From: a virus | Lineage: Duplodnaviria; Caudoviricetes | Length of the DNA: 64,000 nt | Reading direction: 5' to 3' (one strand) | IMG/VR virus record: IMGVR_UViG_3300049573_000219 | Coordinates: 32,001-96,000 of that record | Translations under genes and position numbers: made by a program | Part shown: positions 51,994 to 60,072 of the stretch, in pieces | Layout of the letters: the number at the start of each line of letters is the position of its first letter | How positions within the stretch are numbered: the stretch's first letter is position 1 | Notes under the pieces: model-generated | What the model was told of the DNA's origin: nothing | What the model saw: the letters and a program-made list of their open reading frames with translations, nothing else | The model's database searches: none

Positions 51994-52647
51994 TCAGTTG
52001 CGCGCGGGGTCGACCGCGCTCCCGTCCTCGAAGAAGTGGACGCCGTACGGGTTCGCGTTCACCTCCCGCAGCACCGCGTCACACTGCGCCGGACCCTCCC
52101 CGCACTCCGTGTACGCCTGCCACGACAGCCACGCCCCCTCGATGATCAGTTCCCGCGCCGCGTCCCGGTCCGGCTCACCGACACCCGCCGGGGCGCCCGT
52201 CACCGTGAGCGGCGCCGCCGGGATCTCCCGCGCGTCCCCGTGCCCGTTGATCAGGAATCCCAGGATCAGCAGCACCGCCGCCACCGCCGCGCCCGTGAGG
52301 ACGCACACCACGCGTTCCGCGACCGTGGGCCGTCCGCTCCCGTCGGTCGGCATCGTGGCCCACGGCTGACGCTCCGCCGCCGGAAGCGGGTATTCCTCCG
52401 GGACGTCCGCACCGCGCCGCAGCTTCGGGTCATTCGCGGTCCCCGCCGCGTCCCGCTCCAGCTCCCGCACGATGCCCGCGAATTCCCGGGCCGCCGGACC
52501 CTCCGAACGGGCCGCCCGGTACCGGGCCGCCGCCGCGCCGAACGCCTCCCAGAAGTGCGCCGTCATGTCCTGCCGGAGCGATTCGAACGGCAGCGTCAGC
52601 CGCTCCCGCGCGTCCTCGATGTCCTGCGAAACCGTGATCGTGCTCAT
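51994..52647 (-). CDS. Membrane protein (single central TM)
   Basis: VVCVLTGAAVAAVLLILGFLI. Confidence 0.7.
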   Translation of the reverse strand: MSTITVSQDIEDARERLTLPFESLRQDMTAHFWEAFGAAAARYRAARSEGPAAREFAGIVRELERDAAGTANDPKLRRGADVPEEYPLPAAERQPWATMPTDGSGRPTVAERVVCVLTGAAVAAVLLILGFLINGHGDAREIPAAPLTVTGAPAGVGEPDRDAARELIIEGAWLSWQAYTECGEGPAQCDAVLREVNANPYGVHFFEDGSAVDPARN

Positions 52648-52713
52648 GTCCCGTGTTCCCCTTTCCGATGGGCCCCGGGGATCTCCCGGGGCCCGTGATC
52701 CTGCCGAGTGTGG

Positions 52714-54714
52714 TTACTTGCCAGCCTTGCGCGCGACCCCGTCCAGAGCCTTACGCGCCGTCTCCCGGGTGATCTCCCCCGCCTTCCACCCCGCCGGGCG
52801 CCGCTCACCCTTCGGGGCGAACTCCGGGCGCGGCTCGTGCGAGACGACACCCGCGCACGTCCCCTCGGCGAACGATCCGACCGAAGCGGCCTTACGTCCC
52901 GCCTTGCGCTCCGCCGTGGACGCGATCTCACCCCGCGCGATGGCAGCCGCGCGCTCCGCGTCCCGCTTCGCCTTGCGCTCCCGCAGGATGGTTCCGACGA
53001 TCGTCGAGTGACGACGACGCCACCCGCGCGACTTGCCCTTGTGCGCGATCTCCGGGAGTTCCCCGCACGCCACGCACTCACGGCCGGTCACCTCCGGGTC
53101 AATCCCGGGCCGCACGGTCGCGGGAAGCTGTCCCGTTCCCGCCTTGCCGATCCACCCCTTCGGCTGCACGGGCGCCATGTTCTGAGAACCGGTGTTCGCC
53201 GCGCCGTCCACCGAACCGTGCCCGCGCGACAGTGCCAGCCGCGCCGACACCTTCCCGCGCGTCACGGTCGCGCCGACGTCCGCACCCTCACCCCGGGGCG
53301 TGACGTCCCGGACGTCACCGCCCCCGACGTGCTTGACCGACTCACCCGCGCGGACGTGCTCCGGGATCACGTAGACCGTGCCCTTTTTCCGCTTGACCGC
53401 CTTCAACTCGACCGGCCGCGCGCACCCCGGGCATTCGACCGTCCCGGGAGTCTTGCGCCCGCTCAGCACCTTGCGCGACCGCGTGCAACGGGACTCCGTC
53501 GCGCGCCGCTTGTCCGCCGTCGCGGTGTCCCCCGGGGTGCTCCCGTGCTCCACCGTTTCGATCATGCGCGAGACCAGCCGCTTACCGGCGGGAAGCTGCG
53601 GAGTAGCCACGCCCCCGACGTTGTGCGTGCCGATTTTGTCCGGGCATTCTCCCGCATTTTCCTGCATTTCCACGCCGTTGTGCCGACGCATCACGCCGTC
53701 CCGCGATACCGCGATCACCCGGGCGCACGTCCCGCACGGGGCGGACGTCTTGCCGTTGTAGTCGTCCGCCACGCTCACCGTGTGGTCATCGCGGAGAACG
53801 CGCGTCCCGGGCGCCGGAGCACTCCCGACACCCGCGCAAGCGATCTTGGAAACCTTCGGGCCGGATTCCTTGCGCTCCCGTTCCGGCAGGAGCGGGATGT
53901 ACGCGGAGCACCCGGGGCACTTCCCGTGCGTCCGCTCCATGTTCAGTTTGGACACCGGGCCCGTGTACTCACACGGGATCACCGCCGGGACCGGACCGCC
54001 CGCCGCCCCCGTCATGTCCCGCGCGGGACGCTCCCCGGTCCCGGGCGCCGGGAGCGTGGCAACCTCCGCCGGAACCTCCCCACCGTCCGCGTAGTAAGCG
54101 GCGACGCGCGCCCGCATCTCACCGAACGTGCGCCCGGTCGACGCGCAAACCTCCCCGTCCCACGATTGGGGAGTGTTCGCAGCCTTGACAGCAGCGTCCC
54201 GCGCGTCACGGGCCGCACGGCGCGCGTCAATCTCCGCGATCCCGTCCGTTCCGGGCGAGTCGACCGCCGCAATGCGACCGGTCACCGGGTCGTTTTCGAT
54301 CTTGACCGGTTCGACCGGAACCGGGGCGGAGTCCTCCCGCGCGTCGCTCCCGTCCGCCGTGACGTTCACGACGTCGTCAAGCGTGATCAGGGTGAACTCA
54401 CCCATGATGGACGCGAGACCGGGCCCGTTTTCGTCGGCCCACTTGTCCTGTCGCGCGGCCTCAAGATCGTTCTTACCGCCGTCCGACTCAAGCCACTTGA
54501 CGCACCGGGCGCACCGCTTGTCACCCGTGAACTTTTCGGCGAGTCGCGCACTGTCCAGCGGCTTACCGTCGCACGCTTTTTCGACCGACTCGCAAGCGAG
54601 CGGGTCACTGTGCATCCCGGACGGGATGAGCACGACGTGACCGACTCCCCGCGCTCCCAAACCGTAGAACCGCGCGTCACCGTCAATGTTCAGCGCAACG
54701 AACGTGTTTCCCAT
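52714..54714 (-). CDS. 666-aa multi-Zn-ribbon protein
   Basis: GGAAGGGG SD; CARC, CPGC, CGTC, CPGC, CVAC motifs with downstream His residues. Confidence 0.75.
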   Translation of the reverse strand: MGNTFVALNIDGDARFYGLGARGVGHVVLIPSGMHSDPLACESVEKACDGKPLDSARLAEKFTGDKRCARCVKWLESDGGKNDLEAARQDKWADENGPGLASIMGEFTLITLDDVVNVTADGSDAREDSAPVPVEPVKIENDPVTGRIAAVDSPGTDGIAEIDARRAARDARDAAVKAANTPQSWDGEVCASTGRTFGEMRARVAAYYADGGEVPAEVATLPAPGTGERPARDMTGAAGGPVPAVIPCEYTGPVSKLNMERTHGKCPGCSAYIPLLPERERKESGPKVSKIACAGVGSAPAPGTRVLRDDHTVSVADDYNGKTSAPCGTCARVIAVSRDGVMRRHNGVEMQENAGECPDKIGTHNVGGVATPQLPAGKRLVSRMIETVEHGSTPGDTATADKRRATESRCTRSRKVLSGRKTPGTVECPGCARPVELKAVKRKKGTVYVIPEHVRAGESVKHVGGGDVRDVTPRGEGADVGATVTRGKVSARLALSRGHGSVDGAANTGSQNMAPVQPKGWIGKAGTGQLPATVRPGIDPEVTGRECVACGELPEIAHKGKSRGWRRRHSTIVGTILRERKAKRDAERAAAIARGEIASTAERKAGRKAASVGSFAEGTCAGVVSHEPRPEFAPKGERRPAGWKAGEITRETARKALDGVARKAGK

Positions 54715-54765
54715 GATTTCCCCTTCCCGCGTCGCATCCCCGAATGGTGCGACGTCAGACAGAGT

Positions 54766-54948
54766 TCACGCCTTACGCGACGTGAACAGAACTCCCGCAT
54801 TACCGGACGTCACGGATTCCAGCCATTCGACCGTTTCCGCGTAGCTACCGCGTCCCGGCATCCATGCCGTTTCACGGTCCCGCCGGTATTCAACGCTCCC
54901 GGATTCCGTGACTGTCACGGTTCCGCCGTTGTCAAGCCTGATAACCAT
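54766..54948 (-). CDS. Small hypothetical protein (first ORF of the leftward arm)
   Basis: GGAAAGGG SD; MVIRLDNGG... Confidence 0.6.
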   Translation of the reverse strand: MVIRLDNGGTVTVTESGSVEYRRDRETAWMPGRGSYAETVEWLESVTSGNAGVLFTSRKA

Positions 54949-54959
54949 TGCTGGCACCC

Positions 54960-56050
54960 TTTCCGAACCTCCGTGCGGAGGGCGAAACGGACAGAATTCA
55001 CCCGTCATAGGTTGCACGGCCCTTTACCGTTGCCTAAGCGGACGCGAATTATGTTGTCCGTTCGTGCTCACCGCACGGTAAGCACATTGGGAGCGGACCG
55101 CGTATCGTCGCGTGCGCGCCGTTTCCGGTGCGTCCCGCGCGTCACGTCGTTGTGTCCGCTCCCCGCCGGGGGACGAATGCACGAACATCCGTCCCCCTTG
55201 TCTTGCAACACATGTGCGGAGCGCTACGCGACTACCGCACGTCACGGGCAAGGGTTCCGACACCCCCGGTATCCCGCCATTCGGTCGCACGTCACCCGAC
55301 GGTTTCCCGTCCGTCGAGAGTGCGTGATCATTCCGCGCCCGTTTCCGCGCGGTGCGTTGTTCCGATAGGTCACACCGTCAAACCGGCCAATCGGGGAGTG
55401 TCCCGGATTGGTTCTGACGCTCCGGCCCCGCATTGAATCGGGACCCACACGCGTCTTACGTGATTCGGCCGGGGGTTATCGCGCTTGCACTGTCCGGACC
55501 GGCTGACTACCTGACATCCCGTCGGTAGTGCTTCGCAACCTCAGTTTTCGCGGTATTCCCGTTCCCCCGTGCGCTTAGGTTGCGCCTGTAAGGGGACCGA
55601 CTAGTGACCGGTAATCGCTGGTGGGTCAAGACAGACAGCACAAGGGTTTGAATCGCTCGCCCCGTTGTGGCCTATCGGGTGCCGTTTTTTCCGGGTGCCG
55701 TCCCAAACATCAGAACGACCGGCTACCGCTTGCGCCCGCGCTCCCTTCCCAGGGTTGCCGCGCTAGGCTCCGAAAATCTCAAAGAACCGCATCGCGGGAG
55801 TGTGACCGTTACGGCTGGCCACCGTTCCCGTTCCGCCGCATCGCGCCCGTTCGTGCTGGCCGCTGTCCCGCCCGACGTCGCCGGTTGCCCGTGCGTCAGT
55901 GCTTCGGATGCGCGCTCCCCGGTCACCCCCCGCGCTAAGCGGAGGAACACCCGGGGGCGTGTGTCCGGGGATGGAACCCGGACGCTTGCACTCGCCCCGC
56001 GCCGCGTCCCGCCGGAGCGGGCGCCGCGTCGTGGCGACACCCAGATCAGA
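54960..56050. ncRNA. Candidate large structured non-coding RNA (strand unresolved; G-U pattern favours +)
   Basis: No credible ORF; many nested long-range helices found by eye. Confidence 0.5.
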
Positions 56051-56115
56051 CCAGATTCATGGCTGCCATTGCAAGTGTGTGGTTGCTGACACGGCATCAG
56101 GTGATCAAGGAACAT

Positions 56116-56840
56116 GCAGGTCAGAGCGCTACCGGAGTTCACGACGGTGTGAGTGTGACGCAGCTCACAATGTGCTCTGACCTGCGGAAACGACGAGTTC
56201 AAGATTTTTCTCAAAAAAGTCTCTGTCACCTCTTGTACCTGCGACGATGCGACAGACGAATCTGTTTGTGCAGGTCAGAGGCATGGAGAACGTACCGGAC
56301 TACACGACACGAAACGGACATGTAACTCATATGGATCAGAAATTTACAGTGAGCAAACGCCAGAGCAAATCGGTAGGTGTAGCAAGCATCGATGGTCAAA
56401 CTAGGACAGACCAGTACCAAATTTCATGATCGGGGAAGGTTCCGAGTACGAGAAAGGCAGGGGAATGTGTGGGCATAGCTCCCACATGTCCGGTTCATAC
56501 ACGTACGCGCACGTCAGCGCTGCGACCTGCGACGTATATACAGAGAGTGAGAAGCAAGTAGATGTCAACCACTCTTAGTTACTTATGTGAGCGGGAGCGC
56601 TCCGCTTTGTCGCACTCGAAACCGGTACAACGGTTTGTTGAAATCGCAGGTCAGAGCGGGTGTCCCAGATGTCGGAATTTGCAGCGACAGGGTGTCTGAC
56701 CTGCGGAAACGTGATGTTCGGCGCAGCGTGCGCGCGTCTCCCGGACGTCCTCACAGTGCACGGTGTGTGTAGCTATGTCCGATTGTGGGGTGAATGGTTG
56801 GGTGTGGGAGGAATGTGAAGGCAGGGGGTGTGACCTGCAC
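56116..56840. repeat. Dispersed and inverted (GC)TCTGACCTGC repeats
   Basis: 56116-56127, 56174-56185, 56270-56280, 56646-56657, 56695-56704, partial at 56831. Confidence 0.75.
56154..56169. promoter_or_regulatory. CRP/GlxR-type box TGTGA-N6-TCACA
   Basis: TGTGAcgcagcTCACA is a perfect consensus match. Confidence 0.45.
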
Positions 56841-57640
56841 GAATGAGCACACGTGAGCGCATGTGAGCAACGGGGAGCGGGAGCACGTGAGCACGCACGG
56901 GAGCGCACGGAACGGGGGAGCGGTGCGGGAGTGCGGGAACGTGCGTGTTCGCCCCGTAGGGACGCGCGCACGCTGTCTGTCGCGCACGGTTCGGGAGTCT
57001 CGCCACTCACCCGGTACGGGAGCACGTGAGCACGTGAGGGAACGGGAGTGCGCGCGGTGCGGGTTGCTCGGGTGCGGGAGTGGTGCGCGCCATGGGTGAG
57101 CACGTGAACGGGTGCGGTGCGGGAGCGGGAAGCAAGGGGAATGCAACGCACTCGAATGCAAGGGAATTCCGCGCACTCGGTTTCCGATATTCGCATTACT
57201 TGTTTCGCCTATTCACACCACACATACACACACGAGAAAACACAAGGAATGCAAGCAAGTGCGGAGGAAAGCAAGCGAGGAAAGCACGGGGAATAGGTCT
57301 CGATTCTGTGCCAGTCATTCGCGTTTCTCGTGTGTGCCATTCGCAGCAATCGCAGGAATGCACGGAACATGAATGCAAGGGGAATGCAGCGGAAGAAAGC
57401 ACGGGGAATCGAGCGGGAAAGTCAGCAGGTATTCAGCAGCAATCAAAGGAATACCCACTAGCTCTATATCTCACGTCAATGCACACACACATACACACAC
57501 AATGCAAAGGGATATGCACTGGAATGCAAGCGGGTGCGAGTGCGAGCGATGCCAGAGAAAATCAGCGGAGAAATTCGGAGGAAATTCGACAGGAATTCTG
57601 TCACGGCAGAAAACCAATTGCGGAATTGAATTTGAATTTG
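56820..57640 (+). repeat. Low-complexity, strand-biased repeat tract (GAGCACGT/CGGGAG, then 9x AATGCA, then GAATT)
   Basis: Read directly; purine-rich + strand; no coding bias. Confidence 0.75.
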
Positions 57641-57683
57641 GGTCCCGGGTTTAGGTCGTCTATCCGTTAGAACCTTTTGGCCT

Positions 57684-57854
57684 TCAGCCGTTTCGTCCGT
57701 TTCCCTTGAGCCAGCTCCGGTGTGTTCCGATCACACACTCCATCGAGCAGAACGGCTCTCCGGTCACCGTCCAGTACACGGGTCCCTCGCCGGTCGCGTC
57801 ATCCTCTTCGGGGATCGCGTCGCCGCACCTGGGGCATTCAGTAGTAGTACTCAT
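57684..57854 (-). CDS. 56-aa Zn-finger protein (CPRC...FCSMEC)
   Basis: Manual translation MSTTTECPRCGDAIPEE...; TRASH/FCS-like motif; below the ORF-track length cutoff. Confidence 0.6.
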   Translation of the reverse strand: MSTTTECPRCGDAIPEEDDATGEGPVYWTVTGEPFCSMECVIGTHRSWLKGNGRNG

Positions 57855-57956
57855 CGCACATCCCCAGTTTTCTCAGGAGCCAGTGCAGCGGTGATCTCAG
57901 CCGCAGGCAGTTCGGGCACACGAGCGCATTCCCCAGAAACCTCTTCACGCGCTCTT

Positions 57957-58283
57957 TCACCTGCACTCGTTCAGCGCGTAGGGGATCATCGCCGCCGCCT
58001 CCTGCTGCGAGAACCCGGCATCCTCGATCGCGTTCAGCATCCCCTTGTAGTCCTTCACGTCCCCGGTGGAGTAGCCGCCCACCTCACCCTCCCCCGGGAG
58101 CGGCCCGGAAGCCGCCGTGCACACAGCCTCCTGCTCCTCACCGGTCATGCTGCTCCAGCGCTTCTCCACCGAGGGGAGGTCCGCCGTCGCGGTCACCGCG
58201 CCCCTCTCGGGTTCCCCGGTGTCCGATCCGCAGCCTGCGAGGGCCAGCAGGAGTGCCGGTACGGCCAGAACGGACCTCTTCAT
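57957..58283 (-). CDS. Lipoprotein
   Basis: MKRSVLAVPALLLALAG-C lipobox; GAGGAG SD. Confidence 0.8.
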   Translation of the reverse strand: MKRSVLAVPALLLALAGCGSDTGEPERGAVTATADLPSVEKRWSSMTGEEQEAVCTAASGPLPGEGEVGGYSTGDVKDYKGMLNAIEDAGFSQQEAAAMIPYALNECR

Positions 58284-58455
58284 GGGGTGCTCCTCGCTCG
58301 GGAAAACCATCCGGGATACCTGGAATCGTAAATCCTGACCCTGGAAAAATCTCGCCGCCCCATCCCTATGGGGCCGAACACCAGTTCGACACCTGCCCCG
58401 GGAACACCGCTCCGACGGTGCTGTCCGCTGCCCCGAACCGGGGAGCCCGGAGAGC

Positions 58456-58770
58456 CTAGGAGCCTTCGCAGCGCTCGGGTGTCTCCAGCGGGGAGGGCCC
58501 GGTGCCCAGGAAGCCGATGCCTGCGCCGCAGGTGTAGACGACGTCGATGTCCGAGCCCTCGCGGCCCGGCAGGGCCAGCCGGGTGTTCACCGCCTCGGCG
58601 GCCGTCAGGCGCAGCTCCTGGTCGTGCGAGTCGAGGAAGCCGCCCCAGACGTAGAGGCCCCTGCTGGCCGAGGAGTCGATGAACGCCGTCACGCCGACGG
58701 TCAGGCTGTCGAGGGTGAGCACCGCAGGTCCCACGTAGAAGTCCATCGCCACGTCTCGATCATGCACCAC
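58456..58770 (-). CDS. DUF4873-like hypothetical protein
   Basis: YVGPAVL...WGGFL...FLGTGPSP; start may be 58746. Confidence 0.6.
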   Translation of the reverse strand: MVHDRDVAMDFYVGPAVLTLDSLTVGVTAFIDSSASRGLYVWGGFLDSHDQELRLTAAEAVNTRLALPGREGSDIDVVYTCGAGIGFLGTGPSPLETPERCEGS

Positions 58771-58771
58771 A

Positions 58772-58813
58772 CCTTGCGCCTTCCCTCGCGGACTCAGGAG
58801 GAAAGGCGCAAGG
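58772..58813 (-). terminator. Stem-loop
   Basis: CCTTGCGCCTT...AAGGCGCAAGG. Confidence 0.5.
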
Positions 58814-58844
58814 CTTTCACAGTGCCGCTTCGGACCAGAGGCAC

Positions 58845-59159
58845 TTATTCGGTTGTTCCGGTCTTCTTGCCGCCCGGGTCCGGGATCATGCGGATCTGCC
58901 CCGGCGCCCGGCCGAGACCGGCGATCCTCACGACGGGGGACTCCAGGTTCGTGCGGCGCGGGGAGAACGCGTGCGGGTTCTCCGTGTCGAAGGTCAGGAA
59001 GCGCTCGTTGTGGTGCGCATCCATGACCAGCTCGGCGCCCGCAGTCGACCGCATCGTCAGAAAGCCGCCCCAGAAGCCGGACTCCTCCAGCAGGTGCGCC
59101 TTCGCGTTCAGCAAGGCGTCGCCAGCGACGACCAGCACCTCACCCTCGTAGATCCTCAC
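58845..59159 (-). CDS. DUF4873-like hypothetical protein (paralog of 58456-58770)
   Basis: YEGEVLV...WGGFL...IAGLGRAP. Confidence 0.6.
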   Translation of the reverse strand: MRIYEGEVLVVAGDALLNAKAHLLEESGFWGGFLTMRSTAGAELVMDAHHNERFLTFDTENPHAFSPRRTNLESPVVRIAGLGRAPGQIRMIPDPGGKKTGTTE

Positions 59160-59293
59160 AGGTCCCCCAGGGTTTCCCTGCGGTAGCGCGCCCGCTCGTG
59201 AGCGCGGATGGCCTTCTCGCTGAGCAGCGAGGAAACGACGCCGGATGCCGCGCCGATCGCGCAGGCCAGCAGCAGGAGCAGCCAGGGACTCAC
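59156..59293 (-). CDS. Small membrane protein
   Basis: MSPWLLLLLACAIGAASG; GTGA coupling. Confidence 0.55.
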   Translation of the reverse strand: MSPWLLLLLACAIGAASGVVSSLLSEKAIRAHERARYRRETLGDL

Positions 59294-60072
59294 ACCTTCC
59301 TCCAGCCCGGGATCCACTCGCCCGCGTCGTTGACCTCGTAGTCGCCGAACAGCAGCGGGCACTCCTGGCGCATGATCCGGCCGATCTGGTCGAAGACGAT
59401 CCTGATCTCCTCCTCGGCCCCGGCCGCCGTGCGGGTCTCGATGGTGTGCCGCAGGGTGCGGATGTTCGCGCTCCAGACCATGCCGGTGGCCACACCCTCC
59501 GGTGCGAACCGGCGCATGAAGGAGGTCTTCGCCTTCTTCTCGGCGAACGGAACGCCGGGCTCGTCGAGACCGAAACGTCCGGCCATCCAGTTCTGGAACT
59601 GCTCCATTTCGGCCAGCAGGCCCATCGCGCGGTGCATCAGCTCGTCGTCCTCATGCGCCCACTCGGGGAACCAGAACGGGATGTCGTCCAGACGCACGAA
59701 GCGCAGGGACTCCTGGGAGATGGCCGTGCCGACGCGGTGCCGCACCTGCTCGTGCGTGAAGACCCTCGACACGTGATGCAGGGCGAAGGTGAACTGCGCA
59801 TGCTCCAGGACCGAGCCGTGCCGGGAGGCCAGCAGGTTCTCCATGTACTTCGCCTGGTCGGTCCGGATCCTCGTCACGTTCGGGTTCAGCCCGGGTTCCC
59901 AGCTCCGGTAACAGAACCGCCCCGCGAACTCGACCAGGTTCTGCGGATCGTCGTCCTCGTCGATCCGCTCCAGCCAGCTCTCGCCGCCGACGTCCTTCAG
60001 GTACTGCTCGATCGCCTCGTAGTCCAGGGCCGGTGCGCTCACCAGGAACACCTTGGGCTCCACGTCCTGCAC
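59290..60072 (-). CDS. thyX: FAD-dependent thymidylate synthase
   Basis: HGSVLEH, SRVFTHEQVRHRVGTAISQESLRFV, NIRTLRH, EEEIR. Confidence 0.95.
   Translation of the reverse strand: MQDVEPKVFLVSAPALDYEAIEQYLKDVGGESWLERIDEDDDPQNLVEFAGRFCYRSWEPGLNPNVTRIRTDQAKYMENLLASRHGSVLEHAQFTFALHHVSRVFTHEQVRHRVGTAISQESLRFVRLDDIPFWFPEWAHEDDELMHRAMGLLAEMEQFQNWMAGRFGLDEPGVPFAEKKAKTSFMRRFAPEGVATGMVWSANIRTLRHTIETRTAAGAEEEIRIVFDQIGRIMRQECPLLFGDYEVNDAGEWIPGWRKV

Follow-up and report, generated by a model that had tools for sequence, protein, structure and literature searches.

A Candidate Family of Large Structured RNAs Upstream of the Early Genes of Streptomyces Phages

The window analyzed here is a 64,000-nucleotide stretch of phage DNA and represents bases 32001–96000 of a 187,033-bp IMG/VR virus record (IMGVR_UViG_3300049573_000219) that was assembled as a circle. 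Between the inferred terminal repeat and the first early genes, it contains a region that very probably encodes a structured RNA on the minus strand. The region is non-coding. Its fold is retained across 19 relatives through compensatory changes, on the early-gene strand and in a fixed position before the same two genes. Comparison of these sequences argues for a well-supported new family of large structured phage RNA. With moderate confidence, the element is read as a ~1.1-kb structured leader RNA that heads the right-end early operon. We infer the start site, the co-transcription with the early genes, and the function from sequence comparison. An earlier note made from the letters of the window (the original prediction) had proposed a new, large, highly structured non-coding RNA at this location, and the covariation above controls and the lack of an Rfam match both bear this out.

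Conserved Secondary Structure

The folded segments are as follows, from the 5' end of the RNA to its 3' end.

55731–56039, minus strand: 5' domain (12 sequences, 57 pairs)
55207–55736, minus strand: core domain, ~530 nucleotides with 21 helices (seven type A sequences, 131 pairs)
55207–55364, minus strand: universal 3' domain, helices H16 to H21 (13-sequence MAFFT alignment, 44 pairs; covariance model R1)
54949–55206, minus strand: variable 3' tail of the leader, 133–258 nucleotides in relatives, with conserved hairpins

The middle ~300 nucleotides exist in two sequence versions. Type A is present in the window, Satis, and five others, and type B is present in Frankenweenie and five others. 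The structure tests were run on MAFFT alignments made without fitting to a structure; the alignment of 19 sequences matched by R1 is model-fitted.

In the type A core, 94.2% of the alignment cells are paired (83.7% in shuffles), and 53 of the 131 pairs show double changes (24 ± 3.2 in shuffles, 7–20 in slid-partner controls). Pairs with at least two Watson–Crick types number 48 in this alignment and 12.3 ± 3.5 in shuffles. The 5' domain has 95.9% of its cells paired (90.4% in shuffles) and double changes in 14 of 57 pairs (6.1 ± 1.5 in shuffles, 1–4 in slid controls). The 3' domain has 97.0% of its cells paired (86.0% in shuffles) and double changes in 18 of 44 pairs (9.0 ± 1.5 in shuffles, 5–10 in slid controls). 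This count rises to 25 of 44 in the model-fitted alignment of the 19 R1 sequences, where it includes a hairpin that is invariant in the closer set. For the core, the 5' domain, and the 3' domain, all 500 shuffles stayed below the real alignment in both pairing percentage and double-change count. Shuffled alignments ignore sequence relatedness; the slid-partner controls retain it and agree with the shuffles, giving two to five times fewer double changes and 36–50% pairing compared with the 94–97% observed. Covariation in homologues, proposed in the original prediction as a check, is thus present in excess of both controls.

The 5' domain is closed by the invariant UGUCGCC (56039–56033), which pairs with GGCGCA (55736–55731). 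It contains an 11-pair 5' hairpin (56031–55998), hairpins at 55983–55963 and 55895–55879, a hairpin with a conserved 9-nucleotide loop (~55805–55819), and a hairpin GGUUCU...GGAGCC (55788–55766). Its conservation weakens in the most distant relatives.

The core is closed by a long-range helix between 55667–55677 and 55363–55373. This helix encloses a long irregular arm (55624–55664 with 55470–55500) that bears four hairpins, as well as hairpins H14 (55416–55455) and H15 (55387–55411). The 3' domain follows and includes a near-invariant hairpin, GGGGU-GUCGGA-ACCCC (55268–55249), and a GC-rich terminal hairpin (55240–55214). By eye, the minus-strand fold of type B has a layout like that of type A, comprising a closing helix, two long arms, and CUUACAG ahead of a hairpin whose loop is AACCUA. 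The type B middle domain was compared in loci L001, L008, L009, L013, L016, and L018 against window positions 55360–55690.

In the variable tail, the minus-strand consensus comprises 41 pairs, and double changes occur at 17. Its last ~120 nucleotides extend to the Shine–Dalgarno sequence and AUG of the first gene and include the hairpin CCUCC-GCAC-GGAGG (54981–54968). These 120 nucleotides retain 79% identity even in a phage whose neighboring protein is only 40% identical.

A further contact was noticed by eye. The H16 loop GGGUACGGC (55340–55346, minus strand) has a 6-nucleotide complementarity in most relatives to the 9-nucleotide loop AGCCGUAAU (55808–55816) of the 5' domain, of which the window keeps only 4 base pairs. 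The two loops may form a long-range kissing contact.

The original prediction had listed nine helices, and all nine are complementary in the window. They are conserved in part. The 14-bp helix 55361–55374/55666–55679 corresponds to H3/H4 (55363–55373 with 55667–55677), and all six H3 pairs show double changes. The helix 55212–55219/55235–55242 is the outer part of the conserved H21 and has compensatory changes. Three inner helices (55442–55448/55621–55627, 55474–55481/55609–55616, and 55535–55541/55577–55583) are missing from the consensus and clash with the covarying H14, H5–H8, and H11. The proposed ~20-bp helix 55902–55922/55951–55970 is also lost, and the consensus has shorter local hairpins around 55900–55985 in its place.

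Covariance models of Rfam 15 gave no match at E ≤ 1 over 52000–60000. A narrow scan of 54900–56120 at E ≤ 10 gave four chance-level matches of 16–17 bits, compared with thresholds of 34–86. GOLLD, ROOL, OLE, HEARO, raiA, 6S, transfer-messenger RNA (tmRNA), RNase P, group I and II introns, and phi29 pRNA were all unmatched in these scans, and ARAGORN identified neither a tRNA nor a tmRNA in the window. The earlier remark that the region carries no tmRNA, RNase P, or intron signature agrees with these results.

Strand of the RNA

The original prediction had noted that imperfections in its helices were mostly G-U wobbles when read on the plus strand, and had proposed a transcript running opposite to the early genes. 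The observation itself is accurate for the window's sequence. The proposal is reversed in the helices that are proven by covariation. In the 44 pairs of the 3' domain, G-U cells number 44 on the minus strand and two on the plus strand, at 12 and two pair positions, respectively; wobble-cell counts of this kind are not phylogenetically independent. One U-G pair never varies across the 19 model-fitted sequences, and when the same helices are read as plus strand, standard pairs drop to 89.5%. Helices predicted on both strands have 36 wobble cells on the minus strand and 16 on the plus strand. A looser count of all pairs with two Watson–Crick types is ambiguous (31 and 27) and is dominated by dubious plus-only pairs in the right part.

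The z-score of the consensus folding energy, taken for the type A core against 70 column-shuffled alignments, also favors the minus strand in all three segments. Minus and plus values are −10.9 and −10.0 for the type A core, −8.8 and −5.3 for type B (six sequences), and −3.6 and −1.4 for the 5' domain. In distant relatives, the model match lies on the strand of the downstream genes in every case. The consensus energies, the wobble asymmetry in the proven helices, and the strand of the matches in relatives together indicate that the RNA is minus-sense. A caveat of the original prediction, that some loops read as GAAA-type tetraloops on the minus strand, had pointed to the right strand; its plus-strand inference arose because the helices were picked from a single sequence.

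A plus-strand RNA directed toward the genome end, pairing in trans with the Shine–Dalgarno regions of early mRNAs, is thus very improbable. Its support consists of the nine helices, whose G-U pairs in the window's sequence occur on the plus strand only, and of the plus-strand consensus energy of the type A core, which is also far better than shuffles. However, the minus strand is favored in every segment, the helices unique to the plus-strand fold are G-U-rich with few double changes, and inspection by eye of the window and two relatives revealed no conserved promoter on the plus strand. The pyrimidine-rich motifs cited for the trans pairing also fail to support it. The motif CCGTTTCC occurs twice in the region and six times in the window (2.9 expected; 7 of 100 shuffles reach six), while CTCCCTTCC occurs once in the region, with no enrichment. 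On the minus strand, these segments are Shine–Dalgarno-like and not anti-Shine–Dalgarno.

Absence of a Protein-Coding Gene

The spread in GC content between codon phases is 0.20–0.36 in the flanking genes and 0.02–0.11 across 54800–57800. Compared with one relative that is 76% identical, substitutions by codon phase are even in the core (34, 36, and 37) and uneven in the neighboring gene for a 666-amino-acid protein (183, 139, and 128). Indels of 1–2 nucleotides are frequent in the non-coding stretch in the same comparison. The core has diverged by 20% and the 666-amino-acid gene by 22.5%, so the core changes no faster than the gene. The earlier statement that the stretch holds no coding open reading frame (ORF) is in keeping with the flat codon-phase GC and the even substitution phases. 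A protein-coding gene was considered for the stretch and was ruled out by these two results and by the frame-breaking small indels.

In one metagenomic relative (L035:2818–3570), a 250-amino-acid ORF was called on the opposite strand across the RNA core. The covariance-model match at L035:3382–3541 overlaps this ORF, which is probably a false gene call.

Relatives and Distribution

The relatives of the phage are cluster BM Streptomyces phages, namely Frankenweenie, Satis, Kradal, Quantum, and EhyElimayoE. Cluster BM phages are siphoviruses with prolate heads and 184–200-kb genomes that have defined ends and direct terminal repeats (PMC6687918, PMC10652959).

A search with a 20-nucleotide invariant pattern identified nine genuine metagenome loci along with three IMG/VR contigs; an additional locus matched only by chance. 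Wherever the pattern occurs together with the box ATGGCTGCCATTGC, described below, the two are 729–818 nucleotides apart. Homologues of the downstream 666-amino-acid protein number 87, and the contigs of six distant homologues (40–55% protein identity, up to 260 kb) were also examined. Each of the six has at least 2.7 kb without a called gene upstream, apart from one doubtful call on the opposite strand.

Covariance model R1 of the 3' domain matches exactly one copy in each of 19 distinct sources, with E-values of 1e-29 to 1e-52. The matches lie 133–434 nucleotides upstream of the early genes and are always on the early-gene strand. They include phages in which the neighboring protein is only 40–55% identical and contigs of 250–260 kb. 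A search of the window with R1 gave no second copy and nothing else credible.

Types A and B form a mosaic with respect to the flanks. The middle-domain version does not track the similarity of the flanking sequences, which suggests recombination within the RNA gene.

RNA-bearing phages reach 250–260 kb, well above the 184–200 kb of the cultured BM cluster. One such relative with the RNA and the early genes (locus L036; NCBI GCA_042741515.1, JBHYKT010000008.1, 252,977 bp) lies in a Streptomyces sp. assembly and may represent phage DNA carried in, or contaminating, the bacterial culture. Another (locus L033; JGI 3300049141, a 259,646-bp contig) has 3.6 kb upstream of the early genes without a called gene.

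RNA Start and Downstream Genes

The features at the two ends of the RNA are as follows.

56045–56074, minus strand: promoter-like box, TTGCAA (56074–56069), an 18-nucleotide spacer with the invariant palindrome ATGGCnGCCAT, and TCTGAT (56050–56045)
54766–54948, minus strand: first early gene, 60 amino acids, ATG at 54948, directly downstream of the RNA
52714–54714, minus strand: second early gene, 666 amino acids, always after the RNA in relatives

The promoter-like box reads TTGCAA-TGGCAGCCAT on the minus strand and is located ~530 bp inward of the terminal repeat. Of 12 relatives, 11 carry ATGGCTGCCATTGC without change. Outside the window, the same genome has a second copy of the TTGCAATGGCAGCCA box (G000:C1:13456-13469; locus L021, ~1480–1520). 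It lies in a 60-nucleotide intergenic gap upstream of a minus-strand gene and consists of TTGCAA, 18 nucleotides, and TAGGCT, the last of which is a good actinobacterial −10 element. This second copy resembles a host-type promoter containing a shared, operator-like palindrome. At a 17-nucleotide spacing, TGc-CAATGT is present in the Satis-like subgroup and in the 259-kb relative. From the position of the box, the transcript probably starts at ~56038, the first base of the invariant UGUCGCC.

A scan of 54600–57800 for intrinsic terminators, limited to consensus types, found none between the RNA and the first gene. The sole terminator-like site in 54600–57800 is within H15 on the plus strand, and such sites are fewer than in shuffles. 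A search of the genome for sigma70 region 2 gave no match, and its control did respond. A search for a T7-type polymerase (PF00940) also gave no match, but its control was silent as well, which makes the result uninformative.

Homologues of the 60-amino-acid gene are Frankenweenie gp366 and Satis gp337, and the gene is called in distant relatives too. Its protein has no family match in Pfam or PHROG. None of the 87 homologues of the 666-amino-acid protein has a Pfam domain; the window copy has no Pfam match and only a weak PHROG match, and its Atlas structure model is poor (pLDDT 0.49). In all relatives, the RNA is on the same strand as the downstream early ORF and contiguous with it.

Leader or Stand-Alone RNA

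As a leader, the RNA would be transcribed inward from ~56038, from a promoter ~1.6 kb from the genome end. It would consist of a ~310-nucleotide 5' domain, a ~530-nucleotide core, and a ~260-nucleotide variable tail, and the transcript would continue, without a recognizable terminator, into the first early gene, whose start codon is at 54948. Co-transcription with the early genes is given an even chance or slightly better. The best guess for function, itself rather unlikely, is a cis action of the RNA on the transcribing host RNA polymerase or on the early transcript as it emerges, either by processive antitermination of the HK022 put type or by protection or processing of the transcript. Such an action would let one polymerase read the very long leftward early arm, and it is preferred because the arm headed by the RNA is so long.

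Several points weigh against the leader reading. The existence of the transcript, its start, and its end are inferred from sequence. In the subgroup to which the window belongs, only T....T hexamers (TCTGAT) are present, which make a weak −10 element or none. Because TTGCAA is palindromic, the box is oriented by the −10 candidates alone. A scan of 54600–57800 for consensus sigma-70 promoters gave no match. The wobble counts, as stated, are not independent. The folding energy of the single sequence is barely better than shuffles for the 530-nucleotide core (z-scores of −1.4 on the plus strand and −1.7 on the minus strand). Known cis antitermination RNAs are ~10 times smaller, and a fold of this size suits a stand-alone RNA at least equally. 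The last element of the core is a strong GC hairpin, a possible 3' end beyond which conservation falls, and actinobacterial terminators may lack a U-tract.

Single-sequence folding energy is a weak test in sequence of 65% GC. In 200-nucleotide windows, only 54900–55200 (z-score of −5.5 on both strands) and 55900–56100 stand out, and local values reach −4.5 to −5.7 only at the two ends of the stretch. The test against shuffles proposed in the original prediction has a divided outcome, with little signal from the single-sequence core and a consensus energy ~10 standard deviations better than shuffles.

The alternative, held as a lesser possibility, is a stable trans-acting RNA of ~0.83 kb on the minus strand (56038 to ~55207) that either ends at H21 or is cut from the early transcript. 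Early in infection, it could serve as a decoy, scaffold, or ribonucleoprotein, much like GOLLD, ROOL, or the abundant non-coding RNAs of phage K and ICP1. In size and in its many conserved loops and junctions, it goes beyond any known cis regulator; conservation drops past H21, and the distance to the gene ranges from 133 to 434 nucleotides. The middle domain appears to be swapped as a module between lineages, like the peripheral arms of large RNAs, and precedents for such RNAs exist (PMC9241854, PMC7567579, 10.1101/2024.12.08.627333). However, no U-tract terminator is found past H21, conserved minus-strand pairing runs through the tail up to the ribosome-binding site, the RNA is always directly before the same two genes on the same strand, and it matches neither the GOLLD nor the ROOL model. 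The leader reading is retained as the preferred one.

Terminal Repeat and Neighboring DNA Sites

The DNA features on the far side of the RNA from the early genes are as follows.

56116–56711, no strand assigned: array of GCAGGTCAGAG / TCTGACCTGCGGAAACG sites in both orientations (repeat families D12, D19, I6, I12, and I16)
56606–57650, no strand assigned: direct terminal repeat of 1,045 bp, inferred by homology, with a single copy in the circle-like assembly

Published direct terminal repeats of cluster BM phages are 1,038 and 1,049 bp (PMC10652959, PMC6687918). The repeat is placed at 56606–57650 because the ends of Frankenweenie and Satis align to those bases. Position 56606 aligns with base 1 of these genomes (TTTcTCaCACTCGAAACC.. 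and TTTGTGTCGCTCGAAACC..), and position 57650 aligns with their last bases (..GGGTCCCAGGT). Both cut sites of the repeat are conserved (TTTGTCGCACTCGAAACC... and ...GGGTCCCGGGT), and its interior has tiered short repeats (GAGCACGTGAGC, GGAATGCAAGG, and GAATT). Together with the terminal repeat, 54949–56605 forms a gene-free block of ~2.7 kb, and the flanking genes are on the minus strand on both sides. In the linear records of Frankenweenie and Satis, the RNA region is the unannotated last ~2.5 kb at the right end.

The GCAGGTCAGAG / TCTGACCTGCGGAAACG array is located between the start of the RNA and the terminal repeat and extends into the repeat across its left boundary. The sites occur as inverted pairs ~50 nucleotides apart and are strongly conserved in relatives, and 6 of their 13 matches in the genome fall within 56116–56711. 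They are probably protein-binding DNA sites outside the RNA, and the binder is probably a terminase, a replication initiator, or a regulator. A stretch of lower GC content (47–50%) lies with the array at 56116–56711 and is also outside the fold.

This setting bears on a second alternative, in which the conserved pairing belongs to a DNA-level element that forms single-stranded DNA folds or cruciforms at a replication origin, packaging site, or injection-stop site, on the model of the T5 non-coding repeat region. The region is 0.55–1.65 kb from the terminal repeat and lies beside the array and the lower-GC stretch. The single-sequence z-score at 54900–55200 is equal on both strands, and Watson–Crick covariation alone cannot separate RNA from single-stranded DNA. 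The nested helices, however, span 135–300 nucleotides with multi-branch loops and would be impossible in duplex DNA, the wobble asymmetry (44 to 2) is confined to one strand, and the favored strand is always that of the downstream genes. The repeat families are at 56116–57650, outside the folded 55207–56039. A DNA-level role suits the neighborhood better than the fold and is considered improbable.

Significance

Few bacterial and phage RNAs longer than ~500 nucleotides are proven to have a conserved fold (rRNAs, group II introns, OLE, GOLLD, ROOL, HEARO, and raiA), and each known large folded RNA opened new biochemistry. In a catalogue of ~10,000 viral structured-RNA candidates, the motifs are 29–151 nucleotides long (PMC10690425). 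The present candidate has unusually clean comparative support and a fixed site, with the terminal repeat on one side and the first early genes on the other. Cultured phages that carry it (Satis, JustBecause, Frankenweenie, and Kradal) grow on hosts that are tractable in the laboratory, which makes its function directly testable. The annotation is also corrected with respect to the ~2.7-kb blank at the right end of every BM-cluster genome and the probably false ORF over the core in one relative.

A bolder reading, offered tentatively, is that of a new class of large ornate RNA, which would be the first product of transcription at the genome end and would work as an independent RNA machine. Equally tentative are its outlines, a ~0.53-kb core within a fold of 0.83–1.1 kb, confined to prolate-headed Streptomyces phages of 185–260 kb. 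Such an RNA could reprogram the host RNA polymerase for read-through of the >50-kb early arm or, alternatively, form a ribonucleoprotein with the always-adjacent proteins of 60 and ~600 amino acids.

Comparison with Known Systems

A structured phage RNA encoded near a genome end also occurs in phi29, namely the pRNA (RF00044). The pRNA is 174 nucleotides long and has another fold, and no Rfam match links it to the RNA described here; phi29 has terminal proteins and not terminal repeats.

The non-coding repeat and injection-stop region of T5-like phages is likewise gene-free over more than 1 kb, contains repeats and inverted repeats, and is near a long terminal repeat in a large siphovirus. That region probably acts as DNA. 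In the present phage, by contrast, the repeat array (56116–56711) is separate from the fold, which has wobble asymmetry and long-range nesting.

Like the RNA described here, the put RNA of HK022 opens an early operon and is read from the gene strand, with a long stretch of operon downstream; the present RNA could similarly act on its own polymerase. The put RNA is ~70 nucleotides with two stem-loops, compared with 0.8–1.1 kb here, and no sequence relation between them is known. The functional analogy is tentative.

Abundant large non-coding RNAs have been described in lytic phages, namely lnc001 and lnc002 of phage K (PMC9241854) and an ~800-nucleotide RNA of ICP1 (PMC7567579). They resemble the present RNA as transcribed ORF-less gaps of 0.6–1.2 kb in large lytic phages, one of them with its own early promoter. 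They were found by RNA-seq, without a conserved fold in those reports, whereas the present RNA is defined by covariation. Homology is not expected, as hosts and base composition differ.

GOLLD (RF01998) and ROOL (RF03087) are also hundreds of nucleotides long, multi-helix, and phage-associated, with conserved loops and junctions. The present RNA matches neither model in sequence or structure. GOLLD and ROOL are found near tRNA genes within prophages of Firmicutes and relatives, whereas the Streptomyces phage RNA lies beside the terminal repeat of lytic phages, directly upstream of the early genes and with no tRNA gene in the window. In kind, the RNA is closest to GOLLD, ROOL, and the abundant ORF-less transcripts of phage K and ICP1, from which it differs in host, position, and fold.

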